Below are positions 3,118 to 62,146 of a stretch of 64,000 nt of DNA, one piece after another. How positions within the stretch are numbered: the stretch's first letter is position 1; each line of letters opens with the position of its first letter. The stretch lies in the sequence record MT446390.1; one strand, written 5' to 3'. The position numbers were made by a program, and so were the translations under genes. This stretch comes from Escherichia phage TH12. The notes beneath the pieces are model-generated. The model was given only the letters and a program-made list of their open reading frames with translations, did not search any database and was not told the DNA's origin.

Positions 3118-3372
3118 ATGGCTAAAGTTAGTATTGATGTCGTTGATTACGAATACACCGAAGAAGTTATTCGCAACCGTCACCCTGAAGTTCGTATCGA
3201 TTCAGCCCAAGATTCCAAGTTCTGGACAACTGAGCTTAATCTGAGTGGTCCTTATGAAGCTGTTAAGAAGTTCATGGTTGAAGAATACTGTGAAGGCATG
3301 CACCCCGAAGACGCCAAGTTTTATGTCAATTTGATTAAAAATAATTTACAAACTCTTGAGAGCAGAGTATAA
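3118..3372 (+). CDS. hypothetical protein (84 aa)
   Basis: ATG after AGAGGAG RBS. Confidence 0.55.
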   Translation: MAKVSIDVVDYEYTEEVIRNRHPEVRIDSAQDSKFWTTELNLSGPYEAVKKFMVEEYCEGMHPEDAKFYVNLIKNNLQTLESRV

Positions 3373-3392
3373 TGCTCTCATTGGATAATAAA
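3349..3392 (+). repeat. 44-bp repeat copy 1 (hairpin GAGAGCA..TGCTCTC with TATAAT in loop)
   Basis: Near-identical to 32461-32504, one mismatch. Confidence 0.8.
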
Positions 3393-3414
3393 CCACCAAT
3401 TGAAAGGTAATAAT

Positions 3415-4008
3415 ATGAACACACTGAAGAAACTTGTTGAATTCATCCGCACTAAACTGGGTACTGCTATGGCTAAAAATCTGACTGTCGAAGAACAGTA
3501 TAACGCAGCTGCAGATAAGTTGATTACCCAAATCAAAGAACTAAAAACGGCTTCTGTTAAATCTATTAATGAAGAAAAACGTATTCGCGAACTTGTTATT
3601 GAAAAGAATAAGCAAGCCGCTTCTAAGGAACGTGAAATTCGTAAGCTCCTGGCTGAAGGACAAGATGTTACCATGCATGCTAAGCTTGGTCTTCTGTATC
3701 GTCGAACTGCCGAACAACTTAATACAAAAGCTGACGGGTATGCCGCTATGCGAATTGAAATTGCTCGTAAGGTGGTTGAACTTGATGATGCTCGTCAGAA
3801 TCTGGCAATCAAACTCGAATACATTCGTGAAACTCGAGCAGCCAATGCCCTTGGTATCTCTACGGCTGATGATGTAATTGAAATCGCTGCACTGACTAAG
3901 GTTGATATCGAAGACACTCTGACTCGTGTTGAAACGTTCAATGGTACTCCAGCCGGTGTCGAAACCACTTCTGCTGATGTACAAGAATATATTAACTCTT
4001 TGAAATAA
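3415..4008 (+). CDS. coiled-coil protein (197 aa), possible PspA/IM30-like
   Basis: Heptad-rich, charged sequence; family call from recollection only. Confidence 0.5.
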
Positions 4009-4016
4009 AATAATAC

Positions 4017-4038
4017 GGAGGACTCCGGTCCTCCTTTT
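4017..4038 (+). terminator. hairpin terminator GGAGGAC-TCCG-GTCCTCC + TTTT
   Basis: Perfect 7-bp GC-rich stem then T-run. Confidence 0.6.
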
Positions 4039-4057
4039 GGATAATAAAGGAGTTAAC

Positions 4058-4654
4058 ATGCGAAACCAAAATAATGATATTGACTCAATGTTCGAAGAGT
4101 TCCGAGATAAGGTAAATCCACCTACGTCTTTAGTTGATTCATTACGATATGTTGCAACCGGACGTAAATGGTACTGGTCGTCTTCTTATGAGACAACTGA
4201 ATATGCAAATAACCGAAAATCTTTATTAGCCCCAGGTATTATGATTCATGATATCGGAGCTATTGCTAAACTAGTTGCAGACCATGATATTAGATTCACT
4301 GATTTCGTTGCTCCTACGTGGTCTGTTTGTTGTTTAAACACCGAATGGGACTATATCAGTGAACGTTCAGATGATTACGTAGGCTTTAGAGACAAGCTTT
4401 TAAGGTCTAACATGTTTTATATTGATACAGAAGTTCTTGTCAATAATAAAAAATACTACTTCACTTTAATCGTCGATTCTGAAACTATGTATGAAGGCAA
4501 GCCTTTGCTTAAGAGAGTTGATGCTTTAAGTGCTATTGATGCGCTTTATGAAACTATGGTTGTTAGTCCTAATTTCACTAACAATTTAATCCTTGAGCAA
4601 TTTATTATGGAATGTAGAGAATATGTCAAAGCCAACCCTATACATGCCAAGTAA
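4058..4654 (+). CDS. hypothetical protein (198 aa)
   Basis: ATG after AAAGGAG. Confidence 0.55.
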   Translation: MRNQNNDIDSMFEEFRDKVNPPTSLVDSLRYVATGRKWYWSSSYETTEYANNRKSLLAPGIMIHDIGAIAKLVADHDIRFTDFVAPTWSVCCLNTEWDYISERSDDYVGFRDKLLRSNMFYIDTEVLVNNKKYYFTLIVDSETMYEGKPLLKRVDALSAIDALYETMVVSPNFTNNLILEQFIMECREYVKANPIHAK

Positions 4655-10230: not shown

Positions 10231-10260
10231 GTTTACTTCCTCCAAGGGTTTTGATACTAT
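10231..10260 (+). promoter_or_regulatory. early promoter (GTTTAC, 18 nt, TACTAT)
   Basis: Motif. Confidence 0.5.
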
Positions 10261-10287
10261 ACATTCATCAACTACTTGGAGGAAATT

Positions 10288-10701
10288 ATGACTCGTATCA
10301 ATTTAACACTTGTTTCTGAACTGACCGATCAACATCTTATGGCTGAGTATCGTGAATTACCACGCGTATTTAGTGCAGTCCGTAAACATGTCCAAAACGG
10401 TAAACGTGTAAAGGATTTTAAAATCTCTCCAACATTTATCTTAGGCACAGGTCACGTAACATTCTTTTACGACAAACTTGAATTTTTACGTTTACGACAA
10501 ATCGAGCTAATCGCTGAATGCTTGAAACGTGGTTTCAAAATCAAGGACACGACAGTCCAGGATATTTCCGACATCCCTGCCGAATTTCGTAATAATTATG
10601 TCCCGTCCGAAGCGTCCGTTGCGATAAGTCAAGCACGCTTAGATGAAAAAATTGCTCAACGTCCTACTTGGTACAAATACTATGGTAAATCAATTTACTA
10701 A
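10288..10701 (+). CDS. denV: endonuclease V (pyrimidine-dimer DNA glycosylase)
   Basis: [12 protein letters not shown]...TWYKYYGK, near-identical to T4 DenV. Confidence 0.95.
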
Positions 10702-13441: not shown

Positions 13442-13469
13442 TTTACTTCTCCTCTAGTTGTGTTACTAT
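13441..13469 (+). promoter_or_regulatory. early promoter with inverted repeat CTCCTCTAGTTG/CAACTAGAGGAG bracketing the -10 and RBS
   Basis: GTTTAC, 17 nt, TACTAT; 12-bp inverted repeat. Confidence 0.5.
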
Positions 13470-13497
13470 AGACTTGTCAACTAGAGGAGAAATCAAA

Positions 13498-13956
13498 ATG
13501 ACTATCAATTCGGAAGTTTTTATCCGCCGTAATAAACTCCGTCGAATCTTTGAAACGGAGTTCCGCAAAATAAATGCCGGTATAAAAGATGCTGCAAAGT
13601 CTCTTGGACTACCAGGCTTTCATATCAAGTATTCTCAACATCTCTTAGATCGTGCCATCCAGAGAGAAATAGATGAGAATTACGTTTTTGAATTATTTCA
13701 TAAAGTAAAAAATCATGTTAAAGAAGTTGCAGAATTTTTATCAATGCCGGCACGTCCAGATGTTGATGAAGATTTTGTCGAAGGTGTCGAATATCGCCCA
13801 GGCCGTTTAGAAATAACTGATGGAAATCTTTGGTTAGGTCTTACAGTTTGTCGCGAAAATCCGGCATTCAAAATGAAGACTCTTCAATGTAGAATGGCTA
13901 TTATTAACAGTAAACGACTACCAGGAAAAGCTTCTAAAGCAGTGATTAAAATCTAG
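13498..13956 (+). CDS. regB: RegB site-specific endoribonuclease
   Basis: MTINSEVFIRRNKLRR...PGKASKAVIK matches T4 RegB. Confidence 0.9.
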   Translation: MTINSEVFIRRNKLRRIFETEFRKINAGIKDAAKSLGLPGFHIKYSQHLLDRAIQREIDENYVFELFHKVKNHVKEVAEFLSMPARPDVDEDFVEGVEYRPGRLEITDGNLWLGLTVCRENPAFKMKTLQCRMAIINSKRLPGKASKAVIKI

Positions 13957-21843: not shown

Positions 21844-22839
21844 ATGAGCATTATATCTGATGCGGTAAAACATGAAATTAACGGTTTATGTGCTTCACAG
21901 ATTAAAGTGTGGTTTAAAGACCATAACGATCGCAGAGCACTTAATTATGAGCAAATTGCTATCCAAGTTCATCAATTACTGACTAGTAAATTTGATTTTC
22001 ATATGCCATCTGAAATCTATACTAATCTGCCACGAGCACTTATTAAAGCGTGTAAAGGTTATGGAAAATCAATGGCTGATGGAATCTTCAGCGCGCTGAA
22101 TAAACTTAACGTTCTGTCGATGATTAACTCTAACAATATCCTGCGTAATCTAGGACGTACTGATTTGTTCGGACGTGAACAGTGTAAAATGCCTTTGAAA
22201 TGGATTGTTGCTCATCTTAACGAGAACCAAACACGTTTTATGGCCGTAACAGCACGTTTACAAATGGGCTTAGATCGTCAGATGAACTTTAAAACTCATC
22301 CATGTTATTCAGGTTCAACAGACTTTTATAAATGCGAGCTTCAAAAGGTCGGTGGCAAAACTGTCTTAGTAGTTCGTGTAACGTTTGAAGGACGACGTCA
22401 AGGATATTTTGACATAATCGGCTCTGGTCTTAAACATTGTGGATTTATCAACGAAGTTGATATCAAGCGAGACAGCGTTGGATACCGTATTGGGTATGTT
22501 TGTACTCTTAAAGAAGAGATTTCAGGACCAGCACCAGGACTAAAAGACGTTAGATATAAAGACGAGCTCGTTGAAGAAATAAAAGAAGTTGAATATGATA
22601 TCAACCAAGAAGATGCTCTTAAAGACCTTATTGACGAACTAAACCAAGACGTTATTCCGGTTCAGAAATTTGAATCAAAACATGCTGAGCAAATCAAATA
22701 CTTTGAAGCTTTGATTAACGAACTTAATGTAACTATTCAACAGACTGACGATGAAATCTCACGATTAGCAGGCTTAAATGGTAAAAATAAAACAGAACGA
22801 GCTAATCTTATTCAAGTAGTAAAACTTCTTAAGGAATGA
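21844..22839 (+). CDS. hypothetical protein (331 aa), C-terminal coiled coil
   Basis: ORF. Confidence 0.55.
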   Translation: MSIISDAVKHEINGLCASQIKVWFKDHNDRRALNYEQIAIQVHQLLTSKFDFHMPSEIYTNLPRALIKACKGYGKSMADGIFSALNKLNVLSMINSNNILRNLGRTDLFGREQCKMPLKWIVAHLNENQTRFMAVTARLQMGLDRQMNFKTHPCYSGSTDFYKCELQKVGGKTVLVVRVTFEGRRQGYFDIIGSGLKHCGFINEVDIKRDSVGYRIGYVCTLKEEISGPAPGLKDVRYKDELVEEIKEVEYDINQEDALKDLIDELNQDVIPVQKFESKHAEQIKYFEALINELNVTIQQTDDEISRLAGLNGKNKTERANLIQVVKLLKE

Positions 22840-22840
22840 T

Positions 22841-22869
22841 GTACAACCAAGGATGGTTGGAGTATAATA
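22841..22869 (+). promoter_or_regulatory. early promoter (TGTACAA ... TATAAT), duplicated at 23859
   Basis: Shared spacer CCAAGGATGGTTGGAG. Confidence 0.5.
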
Positions 22870-22894
22870 AATTTTTCAACATGAGGAATATAAA

Positions 22895-23854
22895 ATGGCT
22901 TTTATTACACGTAGAGAACTTATCAAAGAATTTACCTCGAACGCATATACTCCAGGACCTAATCCTATCCGTATGCCTGTAAAGACTCCTGAAGAGATTG
23001 AGGAAATCTGTTCGTATTATGGGATTACTTCTCGTATGTTTACTCAATTTGAATGTGTTACTAACACGCCCGTTAAAGAGTTCATTAAAAATGGTGAGTT
23101 CAGCCGTTTATTAGCCAAACAGAAACTTCGTAATTTTTGTATTGGCGGTTGTGGACAATATTTCGCTAAGCAGTTCCGGAATAACCTTAACAATCTGATG
23201 GCCATTGCTTCTCGTATTCGTCCTCAAGCAATTAACATGAAACATTTGAAATATACTTACGATAAGTTAGAAATCATGGTTATCAGTGAGAACGAGTTCA
23301 CTCTTACGTATAAACCTAAGAATGATAACGTTGCTCGTGTATTCCACCAAGCGCTAGAAGTGTTAGGCGATAATATCCATGAGATTAAAGCAATTTATTC
23401 TCGTGAGCTTAATATTATCGACCCTATCAAGAATAAGGGCCATATCGCTATCCAGGCTCGTGTATCTATTGGTAAAAAGGTTCCTGCGCCATGGTGGCAC
23501 AAAGACTCTGAATACTATCAAAATCTTAAAAAGGAAAATGCAACGTTCGAAGGCAATATCACAGCAACACCAGTCGGTAATGCAGAGGTTCTAAGCGCAT
23601 ATTCTCCGACACAACCCGGTATGTTTAAAGGTTTGCCAAATGTGTGCAAACTGTCGGCAGTAAAACTAAATGTTTCTAATGACCTTCTTCCGGCCGAAGA
23701 TTATCATTACAACCAAATCAAGGCTACTGTAGACCAACTGTCCGTTGAACTTGACAAAGCACAAGCTAAGCTTCGTGATGCTCAAAGTGTTGTAACGAAT
23801 CTCCAGTTGCAGTACTCTAAACTTTTTAATGCAATGAATGCATTAAAATCATAA
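22895..23854 (+). CDS. hypothetical protein (319 aa), C-terminal coiled coil
   Basis: ORF. Confidence 0.55.
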   Translation: MAFITRRELIKEFTSNAYTPGPNPIRMPVKTPEEIEEICSYYGITSRMFTQFECVTNTPVKEFIKNGEFSRLLAKQKLRNFCIGGCGQYFAKQFRNNLNNLMAIASRIRPQAINMKHLKYTYDKLEIMVISENEFTLTYKPKNDNVARVFHQALEVLGDNIHEIKAIYSRELNIIDPIKNKGHIAIQARVSIGKKVPAPWWHKDSEYYQNLKKENATFEGNITATPVGNAEVLSAYSPTQPGMFKGLPNVCKLSAVKLNVSNDLLPAEDYHYNQIKATVDQLSVELDKAQAKLRDAQSVVTNLQLQYSKLFNAMNALKS

Positions 23855-23858
23855 AACG

Positions 23859-23889
23859 GTTTACAACCAAGGATGGTTGGAGTATAATG
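23859..23889 (+). promoter_or_regulatory. early promoter (GTTTAC ... TATAAT), duplicate of 22841
   Basis: Shared spacer. Confidence 0.5.
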
Positions 23890-23916
23890 AATCTATCTTA
23901 ACGAGAGGAAAATATT

Positions 23917-24867
23917 ATGACACGTTCACATTACATTGAATACTTTGCCGGTCTTATCGCTAACGTTCATGCCCAGCGCGCTGTTGGTGCACTAGGATTT
24001 GATGTTCCACACCGAGATGTAGTAAGTGGTATTCTTCGCGATTTTGGTACATACACAGGTCAAGAAAATCATATCTGTAAAGATACTCAGAATGCGTATT
24101 CTCATTCATTAGGGACACTGCTTCAATGGTTCAAACGTTCTCGTTTATTATCTTCTACTGTAGCTCGCGATAACATTAAAAACTTTATGAAACCGAGCTT
24201 TATTAAATCTGTGACATCTAAAACCGATTTGGTTGAATTCACTATTGTTAATGATGTTAAAAAGACTCATTTGGCTGATTGGTTATCTACCATTCCTGAA
24301 ACTAAATTCGCTGATAAATTTGCTTGTGAATTCAATAACCAAGTGAATATGCTTTTTAAACATTCTCGTAAATTATTCACGGGCGGTGATGGTCGTACAA
24401 ATAAAGTTCATGTTAAAGATTGGGTTACTGCAGTATTCAAACCGACCGGTAATGGTAACGCATCATTATCAATTGATATCCAGGTTCCTTATTACTACTC
24501 ACGTAATCTCGGTACCATGAAAGCTGAAGAAATTAATAAGCATAACAAAACCGTTCGTTCATTGTCTTATAAACTTATTACATTGTTAGAGACTATGGAT
24601 GTTGTTGAAACGTTCGACGAATCCGAAGATAACGGTTCAATGTTATACAGTTCTCGCACCCGAATTAAGCTGAAGAACCCTAACGAGTATAAACTTAAGA
24701 CTATTAAAGAACCTAAAGTAGAAAAAGTTGACAACTTGAGCGAAGAACGTGAATATCTCAAATCTCGTCTGAAAGAAGTCGAAGCCCAGATTAAAGAACA
24801 GACTAAATCATTAAAAGCTCTGAATGCAAAAGCTGATGGTTTACGAAATGCTATTGAGGTTTTATAA
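23917..24867 (+). CDS. hypothetical protein (316 aa), C-terminal coiled coil
   Basis: ORF. Confidence 0.55.
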   Translation: MTRSHYIEYFAGLIANVHAQRAVGALGFDVPHRDVVSGILRDFGTYTGQENHICKDTQNAYSHSLGTLLQWFKRSRLLSSTVARDNIKNFMKPSFIKSVTSKTDLVEFTIVNDVKKTHLADWLSTIPETKFADKFACEFNNQVNMLFKHSRKLFTGGDGRTNKVHVKDWVTAVFKPTGNGNASLSIDIQVPYYYSRNLGTMKAEEINKHNKTVRSLSYKLITLLETMDVVETFDESEDNGSMLYSSRTRIKLKNPNEYKLKTIKEPKVEKVDNLSEEREYLKSRLKEVEAQIKEQTKSLKALNAKADGLRNAIEVL

Positions 24868-27237: not shown

Positions 27238-27711
27238 ATGTTATTATCTGGCAAATTATACAAAGAAGAAAAACAAAAATTTTATGATGCACAGAACGGT
27301 AAGTGTCCTATTTGCCACCGTGAATTAGACCCTGATGTTCAAGGTAACCATCTTGACCACGACCACGAGTTAAACGGGCCAAAAGCCGGTAGAGTTCGTG
27401 GATTACTCTGTAATCTGTGCAACGCAGCAGAAGGCCAAATGAAGCATAAGTTCAACCGTTCTGGTCTTAAAGGTCAAAACGTTGATTACCTCGAATGGCT
27501 TGAAGCTCTTCTTGCTTATTTGAAACAAGATTATTCTGATAATAATATCCATCCTAATTTTGTTCCAGACAAAACTAAAGAGTTCTCAAGACTAGGTAAA
27601 GAGGAAATGATGGCTGAGATGCTTCAAAGAGGATTTGAATATACTGAATCTGATACTAAAACACAATTAATAGCTTCATTCAAAAAGCAGCTTAGAAAGA
27701 GTTTAAAATGA
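27238..27711 (+). CDS. 49: endonuclease VII (Holliday-junction resolvase)
   Basis: MLLSGKLYKEEKQKFYDAQNGKCPIC ... near-identical to T4 gp49. Confidence 0.95.
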   Translation: MLLSGKLYKEEKQKFYDAQNGKCPICHRELDPDVQGNHLDHDHELNGPKAGRVRGLLCNLCNAAEGQMKHKFNRSGLKGQNVDYLEWLEALLAYLKQDYSDNNIHPNFVPDKTKEFSRLGKEEMMAEMLQRGFEYTESDTKTQLIASFKKQLRKSLK

Positions 27712-31276: not shown

Positions 31277-31521
31277 TTAGTTTAGATTCAAAGAAAGTTG
31301 TTCTAACCCTTAAAGTTAATGATGAGCGACCGGTATTCGTTACCATTTCCGATTTGCATGTTGAAATTGCTAATGGCGTTCGTACTTATCAAACGTCTAA
31401 AACTCAATGGGACTATATCCCAATGTTGACGCTTACTCAGCGTTTAGAATCAATCGGACTTAAAGACCTTTCAGTAAGTGAAGTGAATTTTATCAAACGC
31501 ATTGTATCAATCAACCTCTGA
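31273..31521 (+). CDS. hypothetical protein (82 aa)
   Basis: ATGA overlap. Confidence 0.5.
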   Translation: MISLDSKKVVLTLKVNDERPVFVTISDLHVEIANGVRTYQTSKTQWDYIPMLTLTQRLESIGLKDLSVSEVNFIKRIVSINL

Positions 31522-31528
31522 GGTACTT

Positions 31529-31822
31529 ATGGGTAAAACATATCGTCGTAAAGATTTGAAAGTTCGCGATTACGACTATTTTGGTAAGCGTAAAGCTCCT
31601 GATGGTGTTAGCCACAAAGACATGGTTGAAAACATCTTCCGCTCAGATAAATGGAAACGTATGAAAGGCGTTGATTCTGAAGTCAAGAATGAAATGAATC
31701 GACAACTCCGCAAAGAAGTTCGTAAGTTGAAAAAAGATGTTTACAGTAAAGAAGATTATGATTATAATACTTCTCATACTGAAGCCAAACGTAAAGCTAA
31801 CGAATGTTATCGTTACAGTTGA
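31529..31822 (+). CDS. basic hypothetical protein (97 aa)
   Basis: ATG after GAGGT. Confidence 0.45.
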   Translation: MGKTYRRKDLKVRDYDYFGKRKAPDGVSHKDMVENIFRSDKWKRMKGVDSEVKNEMNRQLRKEVRKLKKDVYSKEDYDYNTSHTEAKRKANECYRYS

Positions 31823-31829
31823 GGAAATT

Positions 31830-31964
31830 ATGAATATCAAACGAATGCTTTTTAAGCAGGGATTATATACTTTAAATGTTAATCCAAAGGGTGATACAAC
31901 TAAATGGTCTGTAAATGACTGGATTAAGTTCATCGATGAAAATGGGGCATGGAACACAAAATGA
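31830..31964 (+). CDS. small hypothetical protein (44 aa)
   Basis: ATG after GAGGAAA. Confidence 0.35.
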   Translation: MNIKRMLFKQGLYTLNVNPKGDTTKWSVNDWIKFIDENGAWNTK

Positions 31965-32161: not shown

Positions 32162-32216
32162 TAGTTTATGATGGTAGGAAGATAACACTTCTTCCTACCA
32201 ATTTGAGGAGAATATC

Positions 32217-32456
32217 ATGGAACAAGAATTAGACATTATTACATCGAAAAAACGTCTTGAAGTTGTAGTGAATGGCTCAACTATTAAGTTTGTATATGAC
32301 ACTTTAACTGATGCTATTACCGTTAGTTGTGGTGGAAAGGCTTTTAGTCTAGATTCTACTGAAAACAAATACCCGTTCTATAAAGGTATCTTTGATATGG
32401 GTGTTGATATCAGTGTTCGTCAAGCAAACTATTTACATTATCTTATCACTAAATAA
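32217..32456 (+). CDS. hypothetical protein (79 aa)
   Basis: GAGGAGAA RBS. Confidence 0.5.
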   Translation: MEQELDIITSKKRLEVVVNGSTIKFVYDTLTDAITVSCGGKAFSLDSTENKYPFYKGIFDMGVDISVRQANYLHYLITK

Positions 32457-32460
32457 CGCA

Positions 32461-32504
32461 CAAACTCTTGAGAGCAGAGTATAATGTTCTCATTGGATAA
32501 TAAA
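32461..32504 (+). repeat. 44-bp repeat copy 2
   Basis: Near-identical to 3349-3392. Confidence 0.8.
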
Positions 32505-32522
32505 ATAACCGAGGAAAATAAT

Positions 32523-32855
32523 ATGTCTACTAAAATCAAAAACGTGGTGAACTCTTTCGCTTTCGATAAAGTTGTTAGTCTTCTAGAAAAAGGCGGTATT
32601 GTTACTCCTCAAGTTCTTGACGCATGGGAATTCCGTCTTTATGAAATCATGCAAAAACACGACCAGAAAATTGGACGTAATTCTATTCGCGAAATTCTAG
32701 TACAATATATTCTTTCTGAATTTGACGTTGCTGCATTTGGTGTTGAATCTAAAGCTTATCAGAAACATGAAATCTCTGAAAAGACTATCCGTCGTATGAA
32801 AAATCAACGTAAGAAAAAATTCGTTGACCTGAAAATTGTTAAGGCGGTAAAATGA
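32523..32855 (+). CDS. hypothetical protein (110 aa)
   Basis: ATG after GAGGAAAA. Confidence 0.5.
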   Translation: MSTKIKNVVNSFAFDKVVSLLEKGGIVTPQVLDAWEFRLYEIMQKHDQKIGRNSIREILVQYILSEFDVAAFGVESKAYQKHEISEKTIRRMKNQRKKKFVDLKIVKAVK

Positions 32856-33345: not shown

Positions 33346-33417
33346 TATCTCGTGCTTTAAGATAGGTCTCTAAATATTATGATATAATAGACCTATGAAT
33401 TGAGCCAAGAGGTACTT

Positions 33418-54609: not shown

Positions 54610-54638
54610 GTTTACTTCTCCGGTAGTTGTGTTATTAT
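54610..54638 (+). promoter_or_regulatory. early promoter with inverted repeat CTCCGGTAGTTG/CAACTACTGGAG
   Basis: GTTTAC, 17 nt, TATTAT. Confidence 0.55.
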
Positions 54639-54664
54639 AGACCTATCAACTACTGGAGAACAAA

Positions 54665-54982
54665 ATGAAAACCATCGATTGTAAAGCAGAATTTAAGATT
54701 TTTTATCACGGTTCAAGTAGTTCAGCTAACATCGAAAACATGCTTTGTCCTCCTGAAGAAACAGGAGTTCTGTCTGAAACTGGACGTAAGAAAAACTTGG
54801 ATCGTGTATTCTTTACTGAAGATATCGGTTTAGCAAAGATTTATGCAGGACGAGCAGCACGCTCTTATGGAGGTGAACCACGTCTCTATCGAGTAATTTC
54901 TCCGGTAGACGTAGTTCAAATGAATAATACTAAAGGTGCTACAGTTTATCACGCTGAATGGGCCTTCTGTGAGGAAATATGA
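54665..54982 (+). CDS. hypothetical protein (105 aa)
   Basis: ORF. Confidence 0.5.
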   Translation: MKTIDCKAEFKIFYHGSSSSANIENMLCPPEETGVLSETGRKKNLDRVFFTEDIGLAKIYAGRAARSYGGEPRLYRVISPVDVVQMNNTKGATVYHAEWAFCEEI

Positions 54983-62117: not shown

Positions 62118-62146
62118 TGTACAAACTCTTCCGATGATGATATTAT
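62118..62146 (+). promoter_or_regulatory. early promoter (GTGTAC, 17 nt, TATTAT)
   Basis: Motif. Confidence 0.45.

Follow-up and report, generated by a model that had tools for sequence, protein, structure and literature searches.

A 44-nt repeat, CAAACTCTTGAGAGCAGAGTATAATG(C/T)TCTCATTGGATAATAAA, occurs exactly twice, both times on the + strand, in the 64,000-nt stretch of Escherichia phage TH12 DNA analyzed here (sequence record MT446390.1; hereafter the window), at positions 3349–3392 and 32461–32504. The repeat is real and non-random, and is explained by an element of a known kind, the PeSL (promoter-early stem-loop) cassette of T4-type phages (Arbiol et al. 2010, PMC2839356; Comeau et al. 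2014, PMC4122927), here with a probable RegB site as its conserved 3′ part. The finding is largely ordinary in that the repeat represents two copies of a portable T4-phage cassette made up of an early promoter, a hairpin around the -10 and a probable RegB site; the combination of PeSL and RegB elements, together with a covariation of the stem that is specific to one strand, is a modest addition and does not amount to a new system. A conspicuous repeat is accounted for as ordinary phage regulatory architecture rather than as a structural hazard, and direct sequence examples are provided from a further genus (Mosigvirus) of small early genes gained and lost via crossovers in promoter cassettes. 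In addition, a widespread PeSL subfamily with a probable RegB site beside a covarying hairpin links genome plasticity and early-mRNA decay, which are treated separately in the papers cited here, and suggests a role for the hairpin in RNA processing rather than termination.

The window derives from a T4-type phage of the genus Mosigvirus (RB69/JS09-like) that is 98–99% identical to the LF82-x phages, JS09, ST0 and NBG1, and early transcription within it runs along the + strand. The sole mismatch between the 44-nt copies is a C at 3375 versus a T at 32487, in agreement with the initial annotation of this DNA, which had described a 44-bp repeat present twice with one mismatch. The longer similarity of the copies spans 54 nt (3339–3392 versus 32451–32504; 93% identity). 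That annotation had also proposed an exact-match search of the whole genome for additional copies; in the window, with up to three mismatches allowed, none were found. A chance origin was ruled out, as 100 dinucleotide-preserving shuffles of the sequence produced 0 matches. At the Rfam gathering threshold, the window contained only two tRNAs (902–1053) and no RNA family at the repeat. The window lacks the two other members of the same family that complete Mosigvirus genomes carry, located before genes whose products begin MSKYLTRK... and MKTLLENYIK....

Copy 1 precedes an e.6-like gene (3415–4008, + strand), whose orthologue in slur03 has e.7 annotated directly upstream, and overlaps the end of a Frd3-like ORF (3118–3372, + strand; PF05798), the stop codon of which falls inside TATAAT. 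Copy 2 is intergenic, lying between an ORF075c-like gene (32217–32456, + strand) and the ATG at 32523 of a 55.2-like gene (DUF7570; 32523–32855, + strand; named from the RB69 annotation), with the late sigma factor gene 55 next at 33400. Both placements were as originally described. Neither the two downstream proteins (e.6-like and 55.2-like/DUF7570) nor the two upstream proteins (Frd3-like and ORF075c-like) share a Pfam family or any evident similarity; a paralogous coding sequence as the source of the repeat was disfavored on these grounds. The Frd3-like ORF overlaps copy 1 only because the A-run just before the element has one base fewer than its counterpart in NBG1 and in two related contigs, where this ORF ends at a TAA directly before TTTACA. 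The overlap takes the form of a 9-codon extension through the promoter (3335–3372), and the Pfam match of the ORF stops at residue 74 of 84. The short A-run may reflect a genuine frameshift, or it may be an error in sequencing the homopolymer.

Based on sequence, the promoter of copy 1 looks strong and that of copy 2 appears weakened by the loss of its -35. In copy 1, a -35 of TTTACA (3345–3350) is followed after 17 bp by a -10 of TATAAT (3368–3373), matching 11 of 12 consensus positions in a promoter scan; the -35 fits the published T4/PST PeSL consensus (TTTACW-N17-TAYWAT), and overlap with the -10 is among the two commonest stem positions in that group (PMC2839356). A promoter is annotated at exactly the orthologous position in the NBG1 record. 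Copy 2 has the same -10 (TATAAT, 32480–32485) with a degraded -35, CGCACA (32457–32462), that matches only 3 of 6 positions, and it was not returned by the same scan. The promoter reading given earlier for copy 1, with its correctly spaced TTTACA, is thereby borne out; the loss of the -35 in copy 2 had been missed. Relatives carry TATACA (RB69, ST0), TTTACA (PTE-Eco05, AV116) or TGCACA (contig L090) at the 55.2 locus. As in other PeSL cassettes, the 20 nt upstream of each copy are A+T-rich (85%), and a Shine-Dalgarno (SD) sequence and start codon follow (AAGG, then ATG at 3415; GAGG, then ATG at 32523). Approximately 27 comparable + strand sites of the form T(T/G)TAC-N16/17-TAnnnT were found in the window, each of them ahead of an SD and an ATG. 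A T4 late promoter, for which the -10 consensus is TATAAATA, was rejected, as the -10 region reads GTATAATG. A T4 middle (MotA-dependent) promoter was likewise rejected, there being no TGCTT upstream of either -10 (the MotA box consensus is (a/t)(a/t)TGCTT(t/c)a, centered at -30; PMC2988021).

Two further promoter-like sites in the window were observed. The promoter at 62118–62146 starts with TGTACAAACTCTTC, the -35 and beginning of the spacer of the repeat family, and then diverges (no stem; -10 of TATTAT); it may be a recombinant half-cassette. At 31740–31768, an 11/12 sigma-70 match (TTTACA-17-TATAAT) lies within ORF 31502–31822 and overlaps the start of ORF 31737–31964, with no obvious stem and no SD nearby; it could be an internal promoter or a chance match.

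The stem-loop of copy 1 (3357–3380, + strand) consists of a 5′ arm TGAGAGCA at 3357–3364, a loop GAGTATAA at 3365–3372 and a 3′ arm TGCTCTCA at 3373–3380; that of copy 2 (32469–32492, + strand) reads TGAGAGCA, GAGTATAA and TGTTCTCA. A 7-bp stem (GAGAGCA/TGCTCTC) with TATAAT in its loop had been proposed initially. This stem is real and under selection, but it comprises 8 bp (TGAGAGCA/TGCTCTCA, with the loop GAGUAUAA), and its loop holds the -10 except for the final T of TATAAT, which forms the first base of the 3′ arm. A stable stem-loop inside the promoter or overlapping it is what PeSL cassettes display. Folding energies for the + strand RNA were -13.8 kcal/mol for copy 1 (z-score -3.95) and -11.4 kcal/mol for copy 2, in which the C-to-T change at 32487 converts a G-C pair to G.U; the - strand of copy 2 folded with only -5.0 kcal/mol.

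When public viral and metagenomic contigs and GenBank phage records were scanned for a sequence pattern, 42 distinct copies of a shared backbone were obtained: (G)T(T/G)TACAAACTCTTG, an arm, GAGTATAA, the complementary arm, 1–2 bases, and GGA(T/G) with an A-rich run behind it. The copies precede approximately 12 different genes in contigs from at least four T4-type genera (Mosigvirus, Tequatrovirus, Dhakavirus and Klebsiella Marfavirus), including e.6-like genes, motB (T4, RB14), the gene downstream of pseT.2 (Dhakavirus JS10), 55.2-like genes and several others. This widespread family had been overlooked in the initial annotation, which held that absence of the repeat from related phages, combined with a lack of recombinants and of promoter activity, would count against it; the element is in fact present at both loci in many genomes.

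The arms vary among these copies and their complementarity is kept, with at least 10 different arm pairs showing double compensatory changes (e.g. GAGAGCA/TGCTCTC, GGGAGTA/TACTCCC, GGGACCA/TGGTCCC, GGGAGCA/TGCTCCC, GGGGTCA/TGACCCC, GAGGAC/GTCCTC and GAGAGA/TCTCTC). In an alignment of 34 distinct sequences, 97.4% of cells paired, compared to 35–56% when the 3′ partner was slid; compensatory changes were found in five of the eight stem pairs, one of which showed six pair types. The constancy of GAGTATAAT in this alignment is not independent evidence, as it was set by the search pattern for most sequences. Among 12 unrelated contigs matching the search pattern, 1–5 of 8 pairs formed, with one exception at 8/8. 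Within the six inner pairs, all of the non-Watson-Crick cells in the 34 sequences were G.U on the + strand, the C-to-T difference between the two window copies included. The G.U-only exceptions and the weak - strand fold therefore indicate a hairpin in the sense RNA, and antisense RNA was disfavored on the same two grounds. G.T is the least destabilizing mismatch in single-stranded DNA as well, and so a + strand DNA hairpin could, strictly speaking, still be accommodated.

More specifically, the covarying stem points to a hairpin in read-through sense RNA. Only read-through transcripts would be expected to form it, since transcription is predicted to start ∼7 nt after the -10, downstream of the 5′ arm. 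Among the window promoters, complementarity between the spacer and the promoter's own downstream region averaged 16.7, versus 13.2 with the downstream regions of other promoters, and 0 of 20000 permutations reached the observed value. Spacers thus complement their own downstream regions above those of others, and stems are therefore a class property of these promoters. Overall, the repeat very likely represents an early promoter cassette of the PeSL type whose sense-strand stem is under selection.

One site resembling the stem was observed on a contig that does not look T4-like, metagenome contig Ga0123356_10034408 (∼3583–3608). It fits the search pattern, and 8/8 pairs form around GAGTATAA (TGGTCTCA/TGGGACCA), without a TTTACA -35 or a GGA tail; this may be a comparable device of a different phage group, or it may be a coincidence.

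The likeness of the window elements to published PeSL cassettes includes the order of motifs (A+T-rich upstream sequence, -35/N17/-10, stem-loop, SD and start codon), a stem-loop in which overlap with the -10 and G-T pairs are both permitted, repetition through regions of small non-essential early genes, and location at indel junctions between close relatives. There are differences, however. PeSL cassettes were published for RB49/phi1, T4/PST and KVP40/nt-1, whereas those described here are from Mosigvirus; the published stem was assigned a terminator role, whereas the window stem lacks a U-tract; and the window subfamily has a RegB/S1 site directly 3′ of the stem, RegB not being mentioned in either PeSL paper (PMC2839356, PMC4122927). 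Copy 2, having lost its -35, would rank as a "degraded" PeSL.

The final bases of the repeat are GGATAATAAA, and the base after them is C in copy 1 and A in copy 2; the last 10 repeat bases belong to an 11-nt RegB/S1-type site whose final base lies just beyond the repeat. This tail, GGAUAAUAAA(C/A), begins two bases 3′ of the stem and follows the consensus GGAG/U-RAYARAA, a feature that was also overlooked in the earlier description. The copy 1 site, GGATAATAAAC (3383–3393, + strand; GGAUAAUAAAC as RNA), is located in the 5′ leader of the e.6-like gene and matches GGA(G/U)RAYARAA at 10 of 11 positions; the copy 2 site, GGATAATAAAA (32495–32505, + strand; GGAUAAUAAAA as RNA), lies in the 55.2-like leader and matches at 11/11, with U at position 4. 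Both are unpaired in centroid folds of the 80–82-nt leaders. GGA(G/U) and the A-rich run are kept in 42/42 stem-bearing copies of the family, 33 of which have tails with no more than one mismatch to the RegB consensus. The phage encodes regB itself (13498–13953, + strand; Pfam PF10715, E=4e-69), whose endoribonuclease product is proposed to act in trans on the GGA(U/G) sites, and although RB69-type RegB was called divergent in one review, the predicted protein is 78% identical to T4 RegB. Across the window, matches to the RegB consensus with one mismatch or fewer numbered 11, versus 7.7 ± 2.7 in block shuffles, which is not a significant enrichment; the assignment therefore rests on conservation and on experiments in T4.

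In T4, the strong RegB/S1 consensus is GG*AGRAYARAA, and U is tolerated at position 4 if the A-rich tail is strict (PMC1702504, PMC3014915). Most GGAU motifs are resistant (28 of 30 uncut), efficient cutting has been suggested for those with a strict consensus tail, and the GGAU of the 55.2 leader is one of only two cut in vivo among the 30 tested (PMC1702504). The T4 55.2 leader contains a UUCG-loop hairpin, UUUUU and then GGAUAAUAAAA, identical to the copy 2 site and before the homologous gene. The T4 member of the promoter family is the motB promoter, GTTTACAaactcttGGGACCAgagTATAATGGTCCCgtGGAGTATAAAAtc; the motB leader is a model RegB substrate, the minimal form of which ends in GGAGUAUAAAA, the tail of that family member. 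The window sites thus resemble known RegB/S1 leader sites (Durand et al. 2006, PMC1702504) in having the same 11-nt GGA(G/U)RAYARAA in an unpaired leader. They differ in that cleavage was demonstrated for T4 motB and 55.2 and is predicted for the window phage, and in that most known sites are SD sequences, whereas those in the window are upstream of the SD and would occupy approximately +3 to +13 of the transcript. No tie between the site and an adjoining promoter or hairpin is made in the RegB sources cited here, which with respect to 5′ context report only that sequence 3′, and not 5′, of GGAG is needed (PMC1702504); the hairpin is therefore unnecessary for cutting. On the strength of its conservation and of the T4 results, the cassette tail is probably a RegB site.

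A third leader site of the RegB type is present at 4039–4049, following a non-promoter hairpin. This hairpin (4017–4034) is terminator-like, GGAGGACTCCGGTCCTCC and TTTT, and is followed at once by GGATAATAAAG, with the next gene starting near 4058.

On balance, we favor a reading in which each copy would be a T4-type cassette of the PeSL kind for early regulation, in which three functions overlap. At the DNA level, a sigma-70 early promoter would drive the next gene. At the RNA level, read-through transcripts would fold the 8-bp hairpin, with its 5′ arm in the spacer and the -10 in the loop, whereas transcripts from the cassette's own promoter, with predicted starts near 3380 and 32492, should lack the 5′ arm and form no hairpin. 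Phage RegB would then cut GG*A two bases 3′ of the hairpin, as it does in T4 motB and 55.2. In read-through RNA, such a cut would detach the downstream cistron from the upstream message, whose 3′ end would then be a protective hairpin; in promoter-proximal RNA, it would remove the first few bases and the 5′ triphosphate. RegB cutting leaves a 5′-OH that is phosphorylated by T4 PNK, leading to attack by RNase G/E, and 3′ ends that are exonuclease substrates (PMC3014915), so that the resulting ends could feed this known decay route and early-gene shut-off. The cassette may have been spread and homogenized by recombination, and constraint from all three layers would keep 44–54 bases nearly identical. 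Cassettes also serve as crossover points at which small genes are gained or lost; crossovers within the -35 region are documented below.

Protection of the 3′ end of the upstream RNA by the hairpin is suggested only tentatively from the sequence. More speculative still is the proposal, which we regard as doubtful, that the T-even-type PeSL stem-loop is not primarily a terminator and is instead one half of a portable "mRNA punctuation" module formed by a hairpin and a RegB site. In support of this, the order of hairpin and then GGAUAAUAAA also occurs with the non-promoter hairpin at 4017–4049 and in T4 55.2. If true, a RegB cut just 3′ of the hairpin would leave the upstream message with an exonuclease-resistant 3′ hairpin, while the downstream cistron and the triphosphate-less transcript of the cassette's own promoter would go to PNK and RNase G/E for timed decay; a gene inserted with its cassette would bring along a transcription start, insulation from upstream RNA and an early shut-off signal.

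Hairpins that mask translation in T4 (gene e and others; PMC3014915) are similar in that the promoter lies within the hairpin-forming region, such that read-through transcripts fold and transcripts from the internal promoter lack the 5′ arm. In gene e, however, the promoter is a late one and the hairpin sequesters the ribosome-binding site, whereas the window hairpin stops before the RegB site and SD and masks neither. The early promoters at 10232, 13442 and 54611 of the window do pair their spacers with the SD.

Comparisons among close relatives placed both copies at sites of indels or gene replacement, as is typical of PeSL cassettes. The ORF075c-like gene upstream of copy 2 is flanked by two cassettes, copy 2 itself and a neighbor at 32164–32216 (+ strand; GTTTAT, then a stem of GGTAGGAAGA/TCTTCCTACC). 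In PTE-Eco05 and AV116, exactly this gene is missing; the junction reads ...TAACGATTTA joined to CAAACTCTTG... and falls inside the -35, between TTTA and CAAAC, with the 32164–32216 cassette as the left partner. Upstream genes also differ between slur03 and the window. At copy 1, the Frd3-like gene and the element are separated in contig L036 by an additional ORF of 84 codons that has a cassette of its own (TGCACA...TATGAT); this ORF is absent from the window, the crossover lying within the common ACAAAC. A compensated C-G to A-U change distinguishes the 55.2-locus stems of RB69 and ST0, and the ST0 arms are those of other Mosigvirus copies. In addition, three of four Mosigvirus copies have GAGAG, while other T4-type contigs have GGG, or GAGG in the Marfavirus type. 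These patterns suggest homogenization between cassette copies.

Several other explanations were weighed against the cassette reading. The stem-loop could be a terminator or attenuator of upstream transcription that insulates each small gene, with the RegB-like tail incidental. The hairpin would form in read-through RNA only and sits between genes, and an RB49 PeSL stem-loop lowered lacZ expression to the same degree as did the rrnB T1 terminator (PMC2839356). The stems described here, however, contain A/U and have 7–8 bp and 8-nt loops, whereas RB49 stems are G/C-rich; a T-tract is absent after the stem, where ATTGGATAAT is found instead, and a terminator scan returned nothing at either copy even though it detected the 4017–4034 hairpin. 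An intrinsic (rho-independent) terminator was rejected, neither copy having a G+C-rich stem and a T run. Furthermore, an incidental tail is difficult to reconcile with GGA(G/U) and an A-rich tail in all 42 stem-bearing copies and with T4 motB and 55.2 being proven RegB sites. We consider this explanation unlikely overall, although the stem could still cause some attenuation in the window phage. That the element is only a strong promoter, with the additional conserved positions (spacer, discriminator and initial transcribed region) tuning polymerase binding, escape or stimulation by Alt and the stem a by-product, would fit the T4 early promoters, whose consensus extends beyond the canonical elements and whose stimulation by Alt depends on unidentified positions (review PMC2988021). 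Polymerase contacts would not, however, produce a pattern in which complementarity is conserved and arm sequence is not; copy 2 retains the stem and tail despite its lost -35, and the T4 55.2 locus has a hairpin and GGAU site without any promoter. This makes the promoter-only account highly improbable.

At the DNA level, the inverted repeat might be recognized, as a cruciform or single-strand hairpin, by a protein of recombination or replication, for example endonuclease VII. The cassettes would then be active hot spots of recombination, and ectopic exchange could take place between the 44-bp copies. A stem-specific recombination protein was speculated on by the PeSL authors, who mapped one crossover inside a loop (PMC2839356), and both window copies are indel junctions. 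The crossovers found here are nevertheless in the -35 region (ACAAAC), outside the stem, and T4 recombination needs just short patches of homology (Singer et al. 1982, cited in PMC2839356). The inner-pair exceptions, being G.T on the + strand, are A.C on the - strand, which would destabilize a two-sided cruciform (-5.0 kcal/mol for the - strand of copy 2). We regard a DNA-level role of this kind as improbable. Finally, the copies could be a recent chance duplication without function and a possible source of 29-kb deletions. They are 98% identical and in direct orientation, and T4 recombines efficiently at short homologies (Singer et al. 1982, cited in PMC2839356). This account is already contradicted by the conservation data and is scarcely credible: the element is found at both loci in many genomes from at least four T4-type genera, and the covariation of the stem reflects purifying selection.

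The interval between the copies also weighs against a deletion, carrying gene 49 for endonuclease VII (27238–27711) and other core genes along with nrdD, nrdG, tk, pinA, nudE and regB. Gene 49 is essential in T4, and a 29-kb deletion would therefore give no viable phage on its own. The deletions between the copies that had been envisaged in the initial annotation are not sustained, and neither are the inversions, as direct repeats do not yield them. Its broader suggestion of recombination at the repeat holds in a different form: both copies are gene-cassette indel junctions, and the exchange seen is not between the copies 29 kb apart. It involves neighboring cassettes separated by a few hundred bases, or genomes that co-infect a cell.

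Other arrangements of spacer pairing were observed among the window promoters. Those at 22840–22877 and 23860–23897 (also 2847) have a small hairpin wholly within the spacer, CAACCA AGGA TGGTTG, and have GGAGTATAAT in common with the 44-nt repeat cassettes; the 22840 and 23860 promoters precede three consecutive ORFs of ∼320 aa (21844–24867). The spacers of the promoters at 13442–13500, 10232–10296 and 54611–54672 (also 16886, 54177 and 61481) complement the SD GGAG of the next gene, with stems of up to 10–14 bp and -19 to -22 kcal/mol, the clearest being regB's own promoter (13442). In read-through RNA, such stems would hide the SD and RegB site, which would stay free in the promoter's own transcript.
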